Origin: an uncultured Phycisphaerales bacterium | Lineage (GTDB): Bacteria; Planctomycetota; Phycisphaerae; Tepidisphaerales; Tepidisphaeraceae | Assembly: GCA_963755915.1 (NCBI GenBank) | Contig: CAVWLP010000002.1 | Span: 1,024,001 to 1,088,000, forward strand | Length of the DNA stretch: 64,000 bases | Reading direction: 5' to 3' | In this document: positions 784 to 33,755 of the stretch, in pieces | How the letters are laid out: each line of letters starts with the position of its first letter | Position numbering within the stretch: position 1 is the first letter of the stretch | Notes under the pieces: model-generated | The model's input: the letters and a program-made list of their open reading frames with translations, nothing else | Database searches by the model: none | Told to the model about the DNA's origin: nothing | Program-made: the position numbers and the translations under genes

Positions 784-799
784 CGACTCCAGCCAAACA

Positions 800-915
800 C
801 CCCAAGGCAGCCCCGGACGTCACCGGGGCAGCCGTGTGCTCGCGCAGCGGAACCGCGTGTTATATACGAGTGACTGCCTCTTCTCGTCACTAAAACCGTA
901 ACCGAAAATACGCTT
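800..915 (+). repeat. Interspersed ~110-bp repeat family A, copy 1 (empty IS110 target)
   Basis: Near-identical to 33520-33632 and to the split copy 28304-28362 + 29838-29888 (ACGTCACC-GGG..GCCGTGTG-N4-CGCAGCGGAACCGCGTGTT...CTTCTCGTCAC-AAAACCGTAACCGAAAATAC). Confidence 0.9.
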
Positions 916-1017
916 TCTTCTCTTTCGGCCCCGAATAACGCCGTTCCCTAAATCCAGATGGTCGGTCACACCCACAGCCTGCGAGCGCGACAAGAGAGAG
1001 TAATACCTGCGGCTTCC

Positions 1018-26729: not shown

Positions 26730-27932
26730 TCACACGATCCGCTCAACCGCCTCCGGTGTACTGTCGCTCTCCATCCCCGAATCCCCACCCTTCCTCACCT
26801 CAAGATTCTCCCTCGACCTCCTCCGATACTGCCTAGGACTCAGCCCAAACCTTTCCTGAAACGCCGTGCTAAGCTGCCGCGTCTCCTTAAACCCGCAAGC
26901 ATCCGCGATCTCCCGCACCGGCCGATCCGTCCCCGCCAGCAGCAGCCGCGCACGCTCAATCTGCACCCGCCGGATTTCCTGGTAAGGCGATCTCCCCAGC
27001 GCCTTGCGAAACCGCATCTCCAGCGATCGCCGCGAGAGTGCCGTCCGCGCCAGCAAATCTTCCACGCTGATATCCCTACCTCCCTGGTCCCGGATGAACC
27101 GCATGACGGACGCCACCTCCCCATCCCCCAGCGCGATCACATCCGTCGATCGCCTGGTGATCACCTCCCGCGGCGGAATCAAAATCGGTTTTGCCGGCGC
27201 CGCTTCCCCCGCGATCAACCGCGCCAGCAGCGCCGCCGCTTCATACCCGATCTGTTCCGTATTCAGCCGAATGCTCGACAGCCTCACCCCCGAAAGCTCG
27301 CATTGAATGTCATCGTTATCCACCCCCAGCACCGCCACATCATCCGGCACAATCGCGCCGTTCCGAACCACTTCCCGCACGATCTCCCGCGCAAACGCGT
27401 CGTTGTAACAAAAAATCCCCAGCGGCCGCGGCAGCGATCTCAGCACCTCCTCGCGCTGCAGCGCCGAATCCTCCCCCGACATATCCATCGCCTGACACGA
27501 ATACGGCGCCACCGCCTCGCAAAACGCGTCCCGCCTGATCCGGCAGCACTCCAGCTCAAACGGCCCGCAAAACGCGAAGCTCCGCAAATGCCGCTCTTCC
27601 AGAAAATATCGCGCCGCCATCCGACCCGTCGCAACGTCATCGGGAAAAACCCCCGGCAATCCCGCCTCCGGATTCAAAATATTCGCGACATTCACCGCCG
27701 GCTTCCCCATCTGGATGAGGAAGTCCGCCTGCCCCCGATCCTTGATCTGGATGATGAACCCGTCGAAATCGTCCTTCGTCAGGCTCCGCGAAAAATCCCA
27801 GTCCGACATCGGATTGAAATCAAAGTCCCAGTTCCCATGGATCTTCGCGAAGTCCGCAATCCCGCGCAGAATCCCCCGGCTATACGCGTACGCAATGTTC
27901 GCACAAAGTCGGATTCGCAGGTTTTCAGCCAT
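26730..27932 (-). CDS. XylR-type regulator (periplasmic-binding-like domain + AraC HTH)
   Basis: VPDDVAVLGVDND, LSSI, RRSTD, SRRSLEMRF motifs; C-terminal AraC HTH. Confidence 0.92.
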   Translation of the reverse strand: MAENLRIRLCANIAYAYSRGILRGIADFAKIHGNWDFDFNPMSDWDFSRSLTKDDFDGFIIQIKDRGQADFLIQMGKPAVNVANILNPEAGLPGVFPDDVATGRMAARYFLEERHLRSFAFCGPFELECCRIRRDAFCEAVAPYSCQAMDMSGEDSALQREEVLRSLPRPLGIFCYNDAFAREIVREVVRNGAIVPDDVAVLGVDNDDIQCELSGVRLSSIRLNTEQIGYEAAALLARLIAGEAAPAKPILIPPREVITRRSTDVIALGDGEVASVMRFIRDQGGRDISVEDLLARTALSRRSLEMRFRKALGRSPYQEIRRVQIERARLLLAGTDRPVREIADACGFKETRQLSTAFQERFGLSPRQYRRRSRENLEVRKGGDSGMESDSTPEAVERIV

Positions 27933-28435
27933 AAACCTCGACGTTGCGTATATTGTGAACATATTAGCAGCTTTTTGCACTGTCGCGAGCATACCCCAAC
28001 ATTTTCTAAGGAATATTCCCCCCAACTTATTGCCGGAAAACACGTTATCGGCTGTTAATCCCCCGAATCCGGGTTACTGCCCGACTCGCGTTCTGATACT
28101 TTTGCCGTTCGTGAGGTCTCTACGTTTTTTGCCGCTCGCCTTCCTCGTCGGACGAGAGGGTTTCGTCTTCTTCCTCCCGTTCCTTCTGGCCTGCATTTTC
28201 ATTCATTTAGTAGTTCGCGCCGCCCGGGGTTGATCGAAACCTCAGCCAAATCAGCAGCCAAAATTCTCGAACTTCTCCCCCGACTTTCTTCCCAACACCT
28301 CACAGCCGCCCCGAACGTCACCGGGGCAGCCATGTGTTATCGCGGCGGAACCGCGTTTTATAATCGCATGAAAGGCCATCTCCCTGCCGGAAGTTAACAT
28401 TCCGGTTTTGGTGTCATTCACACAAGGAGATAGCC

Positions 28436-29635
28436 ATGAAGTTATACGACAAGGTAGTTCAGGTAGGGCTGGACGTCCATCGGAAGTTCTCGTCCGCCAG
28501 TCTGCGCGACGCTTCCGGGAAGGTCATTGCTCGCGAACGCCTGGATCACCTGGATCGCCAAAAGCTTCGAGAGCGAATCGCTCAGTGGCCGCGAGGCACG
28601 CCGGTGATCCTGGAAGCGACATTTGGCTGGGGATGGCTCAGCGATGAGTTGCAGATTTTGAACATGCAGCCCCACCTGGCCTCGAGCCGCAAAGTGGCGG
28701 CATGGCGGGAAGGACGCGGGATCGCCAAGAGCAACAAGGTCGATGCCGACCTGCTCAGTGAACTCTGGAACGAAAAACCGATATTTAAGCGAGGCATCAT
28801 GAAGCGCTGGTGGGAAGTCTGGCTGGCCCCACGCGAGATTCGTGATCAGCGGGAGCTGCTGCGCCATCGGATGACCCTCGTTCAGGCTCAAACGCAGTTG
28901 AAAAATCGCATTCACGCGACGCTGCACCGCCATGGAATCGTCAGCGAGCTCACCGACCTCTTCGGTGTGCAGGGCCGGCGTTTCCTGTCGCTGCTCACCG
29001 AGGACAAGACCCTGAGCCTCTCAGGACGCCAGACGCTCAAGGAAGATCTCATGCTGCTGGATTCTCTGCGTCGCCTGATCGCACGGGCCACCCGCCGGTT
29101 CCGCGCGACCATGAAACGATCGGAGATCGGCCAGCGCCTGATGACCGTGCCGGGCATCTCCACCGTGCTGGGATATACGCTGGTCGCCGAGATCGGCCGA
29201 ATCGATCGTTTCTCCTCCAGTCGATGCCTGCTCCAATACAGCCTGCTGGCGCCGCAGGCCGACGACAGCGGAGAAGATCGCGATGCCAAGCCCATCGGCC
29301 GCCGACTTGGTCACGCCGGTCGCACTACCCTTCAGTGGGCCTTTATTCAGGCCGCCCACTCGGCAGTGCAAAGGGACGCTTTTTTGCGAGAACTTTTCAA
29401 TCGCCGTACCAACAACGGCAAACAGGACCGCGGTCGCGGCTACATCACCGTCGCCAACCGCATATGTCGGATCGTCTATTCAATGTGGAACAACAACCAG
29501 GATTATCAGGAGGTGCCGCCCCCAAGACCGGGAAGCAAAAGACATAAGGAACTGATCTCGTCCGGAAGTGGGCCAGCCCTGGCTCGAATTGGCCATGAGC
29601 CCGAAGCAATTCAGGCTCGAGAGGCCACGTTATAA
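28436..29635 (+). CDS. IS110 RuvC-like DEDD recombinase/transposase
   Basis: VGLDVH, ILEAT, KSNKVDA, TVPGI, AEIG, LAPQADDSG (catalytic Ser motif), VANR; AAGGAG RBS. Confidence 0.96.
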   Translation: MKLYDKVVQVGLDVHRKFSSASLRDASGKVIARERLDHLDRQKLRERIAQWPRGTPVILEATFGWGWLSDELQILNMQPHLASSRKVAAWREGRGIAKSNKVDADLLSELWNEKPIFKRGIMKRWWEVWLAPREIRDQRELLRHRMTLVQAQTQLKNRIHATLHRHGIVSELTDLFGVQGRRFLSLLTEDKTLSLSGRQTLKEDLMLLDSLRRLIARATRRFRATMKRSEIGQRLMTVPGISTVLGYTLVAEIGRIDRFSSSRCLLQYSLLAPQADDSGEDRDAKPIGRRLGHAGRTTLQWAFIQAAHSAVQRDAFLRELFNRRTNNGKQDRGRGYITVANRICRIVYSMWNNNQDYQEVPPPRPGSKRHKELISSGSGPALARIGHEPEAIQAREATL

Positions 29636-29730
29636 TTGGGCCGCCCGCGCCGGATGAGATCATGTGCCGCTCGGCCAAACGCTGTTGATCGGGCCCGGCC
29701 AGCACGAATGGATATATGGACCGCCGAGAG
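29553..29730 (+). ncRNA. Candidate bridge/seekRNA
   Basis: Hand-folded long hairpin 29553-29662 with internal-loop strands GGCTCGAAT and ACGTTATAAT matching the target; ATGGATA (29708-14) matches the element right end. Boundaries are inferred. Confidence 0.7.
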
Positions 29731-29934
29731 GCCAGTCACCAGCCGGCAGACGGACGAAGAGGTCTCGGAATGAAAAAGAAGTAACCGCTTTTCGCGAGGA
29801 GAATTTTTTTGTTGATCGGGGAAGCCTTTCATGGATATTCGAGCCCCCGCCTCTTCTCGTCACCCAGACCGTAACCGAAAATACTCTTCCTTCTTCTCGA
29901 TCTAAATGTCTGACGATCTCGCCCGCCTATTCAT

Positions 29935-32865
29935 TTACGCAATCTTCTGCCGCGTCTCCCGCCGCTCTTCACCCAGCTTCGGCCCCAAATACTCCCCCGT
30001 ATAACTCCCTCTCACCTGCGCCACCTCTTCCGGCGTCCCCGCCGCCACCACTCGCCCGCCCCCCTCGCCCCCTTCCGGACCCATATCAATAATCCAATCC
30101 GCGCACTTAATCACATCCAAATTATGCTCGATCACCAGCACCGTATTCCCCAAATCCGCCAGCCGATTCAGCACGTTCAAAAGATTATTGAATATCCGCA
30201 AAATGCAACCCCGTCGTCGGCTCATCCAGCACATAAAGCGTATGCCCCGTCGCCGATTTCCCCAGCTCCGTCGCCAGCTTCACCCGCTGCGCCTCCCCGC
30301 CGGATAAGTTGCGTGCTCGGCTGCCCCAGCTTCACATAACTGAGCCCCACATCATTCAGTGCCTTCAGCAAGCTGCGCAATCCGCGGAAAATTCTCAAAG
30401 AAAACCAGCGCCTCCTCCACCGTCATGCTCAGCACATCCGCGATGTTCTTCCCCCGGTAATGAATCTCCAGCGTCTCCGCGTTGTACCGCGTCCCATGGC
30501 ACACTTCGCAATCCACATAAACATCCGGCAAAAAATGCATCTCGATGCACTTGTTCCCCTGCCCCTGGCAGGCTTCGCACCGCCCACCCTTCACGTTAAA
30601 GCTGAACCGCCCCGCTTCATACCCCCGAATCTTCGCTTCCCGCGTCTTCGCAAAAACCTTGCGAATATCGTCGAACACGCCGGTATACGTCGCCGGATTC
30701 GATCGCGGCGTCCGCCCGATCGGGCTCTGATCAATCTCAATCACCTTGTCGATCTTATTGACCCCATTCACCGCCTTATGCACCCCCGCCTTCACCTTCG
30801 AAGCATAAAGCTTCCGCTTAAGCACCGGCAAAAGCGTCTGATTCACCAGCGTCGATTTCCCCGACCCGCTCACCCCCGTCACGCAAACCAGCCCCCCCAG
30901 CGGAATCCGCACGTCGATATCCTTGAGATTGTTCTGCCGGCACCCCCGCAGCTCCAGCGCATTCTTATCCGGATTCACCGGCCGCCGCGCCTGCGGCGTC
31001 ACGATCGCATATTCCCCCGTCAGATATTTAATCGTCGTACTATGCGTATTCTCCAAAACATCCGGCATCGGCCCCTGCGCACACCACCTGCCCCCCATGC
31101 GCCCCGCCGCCGGCCCGATATCGATCAGATAATCCGCCGCCCGGATGCACTCCTCATCATGCTCCACCATCATGACCGTATTCCCGATATCCTGCAGCCG
31201 TCTCAGTGTCCGAATCAGCCGCGTGTTATCGCGCTGATGCAGCCCGATCGTCGGCTCATCGAGCACATAACACACCCCACCAGCCCGCTCCCCACCTGCG
31301 TCGCCAGCCGGATGCGCTGCGCCTCGCCGCCAGAAAGCGTCGCCGTCTTTCGATCCAGCGTCAGATAGCCCAGCCCCACATCCACCATGAACCCCAGCCG
31401 CGACGAAATCTCCCGCACGATCGGCTCCGCGATCGCCGCCCCTTCTTCGCTCAAGCGCAGATTCTCAAAAAACCGCTTCGCCGTCTCGACGGTCAAACTC
31501 GAAACATCATGAATGCTATACCCCGGCAGCTTAATCCCCTCCGCCCCCGGCAGCGGCGCCGCCACCGGCCCAGGCGTATCACTGTGCAACCGCACCGCCA
31601 GCGCTTCCTTCTTCAGCCTCGTCCCCCCGCAAACCTCGCACGGCTGCTCTGACATATATTGATGCAGCCGCGTCTTCACAAACTCGCTCTCGGTATTATC
31701 AAACCGCCTCTGCAAATTCGGCAGCACCCCCTCAAACCACGTCCCCGTCCCTCCATCCCCGCGCTTCTCCGTCCCCTCCATCAAAATCTGCTGAACCTTC
31801 TTCGGAATGTCCTTGAACGGCTGCGTATACGAAATCCCAAAATCCCGGCAAAATTGCCGCAGCACCCGGCTGTAAAAAATATTCATCCGCTTGCCGTTTT
31901 TCCGCCACGCCTCAATCGCCCCGTTCTCCAGCGACAGCGACTGGATCGGGAACGATCAGCTCCGGATCAAACTCGAACTTCGTCCCCAGCCCATGACACG
32001 CCAAACACGCCCCATGCGGACTGTTAAAGCTGAATATCCGCGGCTCCAATTCCGGCAGCGATACATGCGGATGATCCGGACACGCAAATTTCTCGCTGAA
32101 CGTCTGGTCCGACCACCCCTCCCCCTCCTTCTGCACCGTCACCACAACCAACCCCTGCGAAAGCTTCAGCGCCGTCTCAATGCTGTCCGCCAGCCGCGAC
32201 CGAACCTCCGGCTTCAGCACGATCCGATCGACAATCGCCTCAATGGTATGAACCTTCGTCTTCGTCAGCGCCGGCGGCTTCATTTCCCGCCAGTTCCAGA
32301 ATCTCCCCATCCACCCGCGCTCGCACAAACCCCTGCTTGCTTAATCGCCCCAAACGTCTCCTTGTGTTCCCCCTTCTGCCCCTTGATCAGCGGCGACAGG
32401 ATCATCACCTTCGTCCCGGCCGGATACTTCATGACCGCATCCGACAATCTGCGACGGCGACTGACTCGCGATCTCCCTCCCGCAAATCCAGCAATGCGGC
32501 GTCCCCGCCCGCGCCAGCAGCACCCGCAAATAATCATAAATCTCCGTCGTCGTCGCGACGATACTCCGCGGATTCGAAGAAGCCGACCTCTGCTCAATCG
32601 CAATCGTCGGCGGCAACCCCTCGATCTCATCAATATCCGGCTTCTGAAGCTGCTCCAGAAACTGCCGCGCATATGCCGACAGCGACTCCACATATTTCCT
32701 CTGCCCCTCCGCATAAACCGTATCAAACGCCAGCGTCGATTTCCCCGACCCGCTCAGCCCCGTGACGACCACGAGCTGATCGCGCGGAATCTCCACGTTG
32801 ATATTCTTAAGATTGTGCTCGCGCGCTCCCTTGATCCGAATGAACTTTTGTTCTGCGTTAGCCAA
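29935..32865 (-). CDS. uvrA: Excinuclease ABC subunit A (several frameshifts)
   Basis: [62 protein letters not shown] motifs, spread over successive frames. Confidence 0.95.
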
Positions 32866-33413: not shown

Positions 33414-33519
33414 TCGCATTTATCTCCGAGGGTCGCGAAAAGCCGCGCGAAAGATCCCCGAATCCCCACCACCCTCCCATAACAAAGCCGTGGGTGCTTG
33501 CACCCACGGGAACCAAGCC

Positions 33520-33632
33520 CCCAAAGCCGTCCCGAACGTCACCAGGGGAGCCGTGTGCCCTCGCAGCGGAACCGCGTGTTACATTCGAGCCACCGCCACT
33601 TCTCGTCACCAAAACCGTAACCGAAAATACTC
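33520..33632 (+). repeat. Repeat family A, copy 3 (empty; core ACA)
   Basis: Aligns to copy 1; preceded by a CCGTGGGTGC-TT-GCACCCACGG hairpin (33488-33509). Confidence 0.9.
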
Positions 33633-33755
33633 TTTATCCTCTTCCCCCCGAAACCCCCTTACCAAAAGAAGATTTAGGCAAGAATGAAAATACCAATCTC
33701 CCCGTCCTTTAATCCCCTTGTCCCCATCCCCCCCGACCCGTAGCATCTCGCCAAT

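Follow-up and report, generated by a model that had tools for sequence, protein, structure and literature searches.

An IS110-family insertion sequence with an IS1111-like layout and a predicted guide RNA at an interspersed repeat of an uncultured Tepidisphaeraceae bacterium

The element, its recombinase and its copies in the genome

The DNA analysed here (the window) is a stretch of 64,000 nucleotides (nt) from an uncultured Phycisphaerales bacterium of the family Tepidisphaeraceae (GenBank assembly GCA_963755915.1, contig CAVWLP010000002.1, positions 1,024,001 to 1,088,000), in which positions 28363-29837 (+) are occupied by a 1475-bp insertion sequence (IS) of the IS110/IS1111 kind that interrupts a host repeat. 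The left junction reads GGAACCGCGTTTTATA/ATCGCATGAAAGGC and the right junction GCCTTTCATGGATA/TTCGAGCCCCCGCC (a slash marks a junction throughout), and both have in common the trinucleotide ATA (28360-28362 and 29835-29837), inside which the edges of the element are ambiguous; the two copies of the crossover core are placed at 28361-28362 on the left and at the final TA, 29836-29837, on the right. Two 10-bp subterminal inverted repeats, CATGAAAGGC on the left (28367-28376, +) and GCCTTTCATG on the right (29824-29833, +), each lie 4 bp inside their end. A preliminary description of this locus had reported these inverted repeats, the ATA at both junctions, and the restoration of an intact repeat by excision of 28363-29837. 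The first two are read in the sequence as claimed. From end to end, the rejoined repeat can be aligned with 38 full-length empty copies of the genome, namely those at 788-928 and 33512-33644 and 36 others. The left half of the interrupted repeat (28304-28362, +) aligns with all 38, and the right half (29838-29900, +) likewise aligns with empty copies.

The recombinase gene of the element is an open reading frame (ORF) at 28436-29635 (+) encoding 399 amino acids (aa), which leaves 73 nt of non-coding sequence on its 5' side and 202 nt on its 3' side. Its conserved core extends to about residue 365, and the remaining tail is a translation through the predicted guide RNA gene that is described below. 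The protein scores above the cut-offs of Pfam PF01548 (E 7.4e-9) and PF02371 (E 1.6e-13), and it also matches NCBIfam NF033542 'IS110 family RNA-guided transposase' (161.5 bits vs a cut-off of 140); judged by these profiles, the element is a member of the IS110 family. Five residues (viz. D13, E60, D103, S278, and G279) are invariant in 7/7 aligned relatives. In the alignment with IS621, S278 falls on the serine of the YESG motif, which we take, by counting offsets, to be the residue named as the catalytic serine S241 (PMC11208158). Among solved structures, IS621 (E 7e-4) and ISCro4 are weakly matched (E about 1e-3), in both cases within the C-terminal domain only.

The placement of this protein within the IS110 family is less clear. 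In a comparison with annotated plasmids every relative fell below 30% identity, and IS4321, the sole named protein of the IS1111 group compared, shared 27.3% identity over residues 3-370 (E 5e-12). IS1111 transposases are reported to be 330-350 aa in length (PMC11187229), compared with 399 aa here, and the C-terminal motif LLAPQADDSG (LLAP----SG) departs from the IS1111 pattern GL-P----S(T)G. The features that are IS1111-like are the 10-bp subterminal inverted repeats (7-17 bp in the IS1111 subgroup; PMC11208160), the longer 3' non-coding end, and a guide order in which the complement of the top strand comes first. Hence, of the designation 'IS1111-type recombinase' in the preliminary description, the IS110 family and an IS1111-like layout are retained, whereas membership of the IS1111 subgroup is not proven, given the 27% identity to IS4321 and the length of the protein. 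The relatives of the recombinase number at least 1064 proteins at E <= 1e-30; the few that are named are called 'IS110 family transposase' and come from metagenome-assembled genomes of Tepidisphaeraceae, Humisphaera, and Terriglobales. None of these relatives carries an ISfinder name, and our literature search found no report pairing Tepidisphaeraceae with IS110.

A BLAST search of the whole genome (a 6.6-Mb assembly of 3 contigs) has identified four copies of the element, each 100% identical across 1475 bp. In all four, the 22 bp to the left are CGCGGCGGAACCGCGTTTTATA and the sequence to the right is TTCGAG, while the sequence farther out differs for each locus, and therefore the element occupies the same position in the same orientation in four different repeat copies. 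This search had been put forward in the preliminary description as a possible refutation of its account, and it returned 4/4 copies at one position of the repeat.

To compare the ends and targets of related elements, we assembled relatives from two loci of species genomes, from 11 further genomes of the family (with the present one, 12/141 genomes match), and from metagenomes, where 80 loci were kept out of 444 confirmed stretches, mostly from soil. Of 91 loci examined, 72 hold elements with both ends on the contig. The ends are almost invariant among these 72 elements (CATGAAAGGC in 70/72, GCCTTTCATG in 72/72, and terminal GGATA in 68/72); these counts hold partly by construction, as the ends were located via these motifs, and a looser search allowing 2 mismatches gave the exact motifs at nearly all loci. 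The right end GCCTTTCATGGATA is common to the relatives though their flanks and targets are diverse. TA stands at the end of the left flank in 71/72 elements and closes the element in 68/72, while the base preceding the TA of the left flank is variable (G 51, T 9, A 9, and C 2). Because of this near-constant TA and variable preceding base, we take the crossover core to be TA and not ATA, and the third base shared by the two junctions of this element is, on this comparison, coincidental. The preliminary description was right that there is no larger target duplication, and its core is shortened by one base; its expectation that target, donor and core could all be read from one window did not hold, for the core and the guides could be recognised only with the help of relatives.

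The closest relatives (L024, L026, L030, L002, and L001; 79-90% protein identity) are found at the same position of the same repeat family. For most relatives the insertion site is the foot of a GC-rich palindrome, TA/GGGTGGGC...GCCCACC or similar, and 21/72 targets begin with GGGT. A palindrome resembling repetitive extragenic palindromes (REP), TA/GGGTGGGCGTAC.CGCCCACC, is the site of many of them (L005, L012, L035, L038, L047, L057, L070, and others), and similar palindromes adjoin some repeat copies in the present genome, e.g. near C2:1215908 and C2:4406568 (contig and position in the assembly).

A predicted guide RNA and its target sites

An alignment of the 3' parts of the relatives contains a conserved stretch that begins about 80 nt upstream of the stop codon. 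The first RNA domain predicted from it (29556-29659, +) is closed by helix P1 (29556-29565 with 29650-29659), and helices P1-P4 surround an internal loop that we interpret as target-binding. RNAalifold assigns this structure -44.5 kcal/mol in 37 relatives. Compensatory changes are found in 14/37 of its pairs across the 37 sequences, and 96.5% of the cells are standard pairs vs 24-43% when the partners are slid; 0/500 shuffles reach any of five measures. The fold of the 3' end of this element alone is no better than that of shuffles (z = +1.6), so that the structure emerged only from the alignment of relatives.

The two sides of this internal loop correspond to the two sides of the target. The 5' side is the reverse complement of the core and right target, and the 3' side is identical to the left target and core. 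In the element studied here the right target guide (29581-29589, +) is GGCTCGAAT (RNA GGCUCGAAU), which is complementary to A/TTCGAGCC of the top strand, viz. the core A and 8 nt of the right target; the left target guide (29630-29634, +, followed by A at 29635) is TTATA, viz. 3 nt of the left target and the core TA. A simple complementarity scan of the non-coding ends had missed the right guide, whose position within the ORF is upstream of the stretch covered by that scan. For the right guide of 42 distinct elements, the contiguous match averages 5.45 with cognate targets vs 1.50 with non-cognate targets, and for the left guide, counted beyond the core, it averages 2.57 vs 0.84; in neither case does any of 5000 permutations reach the cognate value. 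The match of the right guide is exactly 6 nt next to the core in 29/42 elements, and the left guide of one relative (L063) matches 8 nt as well as the core, CCGCCGCGTA over 10 nt. To judge from the aligned loci, the pattern is visible case by case despite the kinship of the relatives. The proposal in the preliminary description that the element is programmed against its repeat is supported by this covariation of guide and target.

The target-binding loop overlaps the 3' end of the recombinase ORF, and the TAA made up of the last bases of the left guide and the A after them is the stop codon of that ORF. The ORF stops at the guide TAA in 16/57 relatives, which is about chance level, and hence the overlap of stop codon and guide is incidental and not conserved. 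The reading frame of the tail also differs among relatives while its nucleotides are conserved (GGG CCA GCC in this element, GGC CAG CCC in L005), and therefore the constraint is on the RNA or DNA and not on the protein tail.

Taken jointly, the two guides specify TTA-TA-TTCGAGCC, i.e. the 13-mer TTATATTCGAGCC. This 13-mer occurs in the genome only inside one repeat subfamily; its 3 intact occurrences are all in empty repeat copies (C2:1267027, C2:1286350, and C2:4406640), and 3/4 occupied sites rejoin to it. The two empty repeat copies of the window, which the preliminary description had regarded as empty targets, do align as copies of the repeat. As targets they are imperfect: the copy at 788-928 (+) has the site GTTA-TA-TACGAGTG, which differs from the guide on the right side, and that at 33512-33644 (+) has GTTA-CA-TTCGAGCC, without the TA core. 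Judged by their sequences, both are paralogues with imperfect guide matches.

The second RNA domain (29660-29757, +) is probably a donor-binding loop. It carries ACGAATGGATA followed by T, and within this the segment ATGGATA (29708-29714), then T at 29715; ATGGATA repeats the final 7 nt of the right end, core included. Among the aligned relatives the motif A[AT]TGGATA is kept, helices 5 and 6 of this domain covary, and ATGGATA is, by analogy, probably the left donor guide. Because the donor ends hardly vary, the assignment of this loop to the donor is one that we infer, and the alignment of relatives yielded no right donor guide. The T at 29715 is also the first base of the right target, and the base after AUGGAUA equals the first target base in 58/66 elements; this hints at a handshake-like contact, with about one clade change behind the 58/66, and a second clade whose targets start with T has C at this position. 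One metagenome contig (L033:2100-2162) has the right end joined directly to the sequence that follows an internal AATGGATA of the guide RNA gene, which looks like recombination with an internal donor mimic or like a partial tandem copy.

The ends of the element would also form a promoter if joined in a circle. An outward-facing -35 box, TTGATC (29812-29817, +), lies 16 nt from GATA/AT on the computed circle, the -10 box being split between the two ends. All of the 68 distinct circle junctions that we computed score at least 8/12, mostly as TTGAC(N)-16/17-GATAAT, with TTGATC-16-GATAAT in this element. In IS621, a promoter is formed at the circle junction.

Several smaller features of the element and its surroundings may be noted. 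Ahead of the outward -35 box, a short hairpin followed by seven T (29785-29810) varies on both sides in relatives when read by eye; it may end the guide RNA, and it was not among the results of the terminator scan. In the left end, a conserved hairpin, CCGGAAGTTAACATTCCGG (28387-28405, +; stem 28386-28406 in the terminator scan), is followed by a ribosome-binding site AAGGAGA, and its stem varies on both sides in relatives (CCGGAC..GTCCGG, CCGGGC..GCCCGG; read from the alignment by eye). A perfect TATAAT arises by insertion across the left junction (TTTTATA/AT; 28360-28365), just upstream of the recombinase gene, and no -35 box fitting it is present (2/6, by eye). The neighbours of the element at 26730-28043 (-) and 29935-31275 (-) are, by the look of their translations, presumably a sugar-binding/AraC-type regulator and uvrA.

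The host repeat

The host repeat is an interspersed, intergenic sequence of about 130-160 nt. A profile of the repeat gives 50 matches in the genome, of which 38 are full-length empty copies, 8 are the halves of the 4 occupied copies, and 4 are partial or weak. The copies show no orientation bias relative to neighbouring ORFs (20:15, from crude ORF calls). The left half of the copy interrupted here contains a small hairpin and T-run (28341-28355, +; CGCGG-CGGAA-CCGCG, then TTTTATA), which was flagged by the terminator scan. A solitary left half that ends near the insertion position is found at C3:908914-908998, 8 kb from the C3 copy of the element, with no element adjoining it. The repeat is modular in its make-up, as seen in the two empty copies of the window and in copies elsewhere in the genome (e.g. 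C2:1266970 and C2:4138315): many copies share an inner hairpin, GCGCCGTGC...GCACGGCGGC, and some have an outer extension, AATAAATGTGAGTAATGACAAGT.

According to a sequence-only model, the repeat is found in 16/141 genomes of the family, viz. 12/13 genomes of this genus (including the present one) and 4 genomes in 3 other genera; without the unpublished genome G062 (genus g40) these figures are 15/140 genomes and 2 other genera. Most of the repeat-bearing genomes reach at least 21 scored matches. In 7/10 loci from other genomes, two copies are inverted around a long palindromic centre with hairpins of its own, while the copies in the present genome are mostly single arms, two of which carry half of a palindromic centre. 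The centre between inverted arms measures about 35-300 nt in related genomes, and G(G/C)GTGAC(G/T) is a recurrent motif of each arm. One related genome (G124) lacks the repeat at the orthologous locus, where flanking genes of 92-94% identity enclose a spacer that is unrelated throughout; the place of 28237-29935 is taken there (L152, G124:C5) by a 106-nt sequence with a CCCCCGG...CCGGGGG hairpin. Because of the inverted pairs in 7/10 loci, the single arms and half centres in this genome, and the absence in G124, the repeat looks like an arm of a mosaic or of a palindromic element resembling miniature inverted-repeat transposable elements (MITEs). Comparison of the copies here and in other genomes defined neither a target duplication nor sharp ends of the repeat.

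Other descriptions of the repeat were considered and rejected. As a structured RNA it is not supported by RNAalifold (-5.5/-5.0 kcal/mol, the -5.0 fold having 11 pairs, 2 of them compensated), nor is there any Watson-Crick pair among the top 25 column pairs by mutual information; Rfam gave no match to the repeat, either in the window at gathering thresholds or with six repeat loci. A fold of the minus strand, favoured by alifold with ribosum scoring (-44.8 vs -28.9), failed in standard RNAalifold and in mutual information. The idea of an attC array was dropped, as the copies are dispersed over two contigs and are not arrayed.

Proposed mechanism, alternatives and significance

The results above are very probably best explained by an RNA-guided element of the IS110 family, with an IS1111-type layout, whose guides set its site in the repeat. 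The element would be active or recently active and would encode a DEDD/serine recombinase and a guide RNA (bridge RNA or seekRNA) of about 200-255 nt, which would extend from inside the 3' end of the ORF across the right non-coding end. Of the two sides of the first loop, the 5' one, GGCUCGAAU, would pair rightward of the crossover with the top strand, and the 3' one, UUAUA, leftward of the crossover with the bottom strand, both guides including the TA core or a part of it. The second loop, with AUGGAUA, would probably recognise the joined ends of the element itself, which are near-invariant across the clade. The element, in a circular form, would then recombine with the target at TA and be inserted without duplication beyond the core. 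We infer from the guide covariation and from published work on related elements that the RNA is produced and the recombinase binds it, that the second loop acts on the donor, and that the circle and the chemistry are of this kind.

A number of observations weigh against this explanation or weaken it. The fourth occupied site, on contig C3, is mismatched at right-target positions 7-8, and therefore either mismatches are tolerated in recognition or fewer than 9 nt are recognised. In this element the match of the left guide beyond the core is just 3 nt, and in the right guide a U faces the core T, which is left unpaired; in most relatives this guide reads ..CCCUAU. The relatives are not independent, so the permutation counts given above overstate significance. 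On the donor side a single base varies, at the fourth position of the left end, and its covariation provides a hint only: C in the RNA goes with G at this position in 5/5 elements, and A in the RNA occurs with all four bases. The guide RNA is a prediction from sequence comparison; among public runs, no RNA run contained the stretch (one metatranscriptome had 0.06 of the sequence words in common with it). Rfam gave no match in the window at gathering thresholds, the RNA of this element was absent from Rfam families in a search with the element, and at E <= 1 that search gave only a chance match (Ysr276, 13 bits). The assembly contains no circle junction. In the contigs of four soil metagenome runs that contain the element no joints, empty alleles, or circles were found, a result that says little because contigs drop rare forms.

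The first alternative is that the four copies represent one old insertion that was spread by duplication or gene conversion between repeat copies. The left flanks of the copies at C3:899527 and C2:348428 are indeed nearly identical for 90 bp, and on the right C2:348428 has a flank similar to that of the window copy; exchange between copies could be the reason. Rearrangements across elements also seem to occur, as L001 (= L027) is flanked by two inverted right halves of the repeat. In this arrangement the 83%-identical element (L001:2370-3964) has a left junction that is the exact reverse complement of its right junction, a possible outcome of an inversion involving two copies in opposite orientation, or of a fold-back in the assembly. 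However, the sequence outside the repeat differs at all four loci of the present genome and the repeat halves differ between loci, while L024, L026, L030, and L002 occupy the same repeat position in other organisms with other flanks. The covariation of guide and target would be unexpected if copies had spread by homologous recombination, and on balance we regard such an origin of the four copies as improbable.

The second alternative is that the target is chosen by the protein alone or by DNA structure, in which case the conserved 3' region would be merely regulatory or a terminator. It could account for the many targets of the clade at the foot of GC-rich palindromes, including those beginning with GGGT, and it agrees with the position of this element beside a small hairpin and T-run and with the shortness of its left guide. 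It does not explain why the loop segments follow the target in register (6 nt and the core in 29/42 elements) while the ends of the protein and of the DNA remain constant, nor why compensatory changes keep the loop helices and nucleotide conservation is independent of the reading frame. RNA guidance has moreover been shown experimentally for members of both the IS1111 and IS110 types (PMC11187229, PMC11208160), and choice by protein or DNA structure alone seems very improbable here. Lastly, the identity of the left 22 bp in all four copies might suggest that the repeat halves are part of a larger composite with boundaries wider than 28363-29837, but this can be dismissed almost entirely, since empty copies share those 22 bp (C2:1286294 and C3:805624 whole, C2:1266970 with one base off) and relatives with the same ends occupy unrelated targets.

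The RNA-guided element proposed here resembles the IS1111-type seekRNA elements ISEc11, ISPa11, ISKpn4, and ISPst6 in its DEDD recombinase with PF02371, its subterminal inverted repeats, and its long downstream non-coding region (PMC11187229). Here as in those elements, the complement of the top strand lies 5' of that of the bottom strand, with an overlap at the crossover, and the target, in many cases a repeat, is specific to the element or clade (PMC11187229). Apart from the differences in the protein described above, the present element is unlike these in that its predicted target loop lies inside the 3' end of the ORF and is thus not wholly in non-coding DNA (PMC11187229). IS621 likewise leaves no duplication beyond the core, and its bridge RNA has a pair of internal loops in which both the left and the right guide include the dinucleotide core (PMC11208160, PMC11208158); the possible extra base next to a guide that matches the partner DNA is like its handshake guide (PMC11208160, PMC11208158). 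In contrast, the RNA of IS621 is located in the left end upstream of the gene, its guide order is reversed, and its core is CT and not TA (PMC11208160), and similarity of the IS621 protein to the recombinase is limited to the C-terminal domain (E 7e-4). Precise, one-orientation insertion into repeated host or mobile-element sequences, as seen here, is described for repeat-targeting elements in PMC12288879 and in other papers; the target differs in being an undescribed Tepidisphaeraceae repeat of about 130-160 nt, and most relatives of the clade differ in sitting at the foot of REP-like palindromes.

RNA-guided recombinases of the IS110/IS1111 kind are in development as programmable tools for DNA insertion, and only a handful have been tested. 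The clade described here is large (the at least 1064 proteins and 444 metagenome stretches given above), mostly unnamed and mostly from soil, and its near-invariant donor ends and readable guides give a ready table of 42 distinct guide-target pairs. It offers a compact IS1111-type system from Planctomycetota, and possibly from Acidobacteriota (one source name), to set beside IS621 and ISEc11. A broader and distinctly tentative reading, which we think possible but doubtful, is that the repeat is an arm of an undescribed palindromic mobile element of Tepidisphaeraceae and that the IS sub-clade is a parasite of this parasite, with its guide tuned to a variable 7-nt block. Under that reading, element and target subfamilies would co-diversify, and each retargeting would rewrite the C-terminal tail of the recombinase, because the target loop lies inside the ORF. 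In the organism itself, the element marks a repeat family widespread in the genus, and the three perfect empty targets show that the subfamily is open to insertion.

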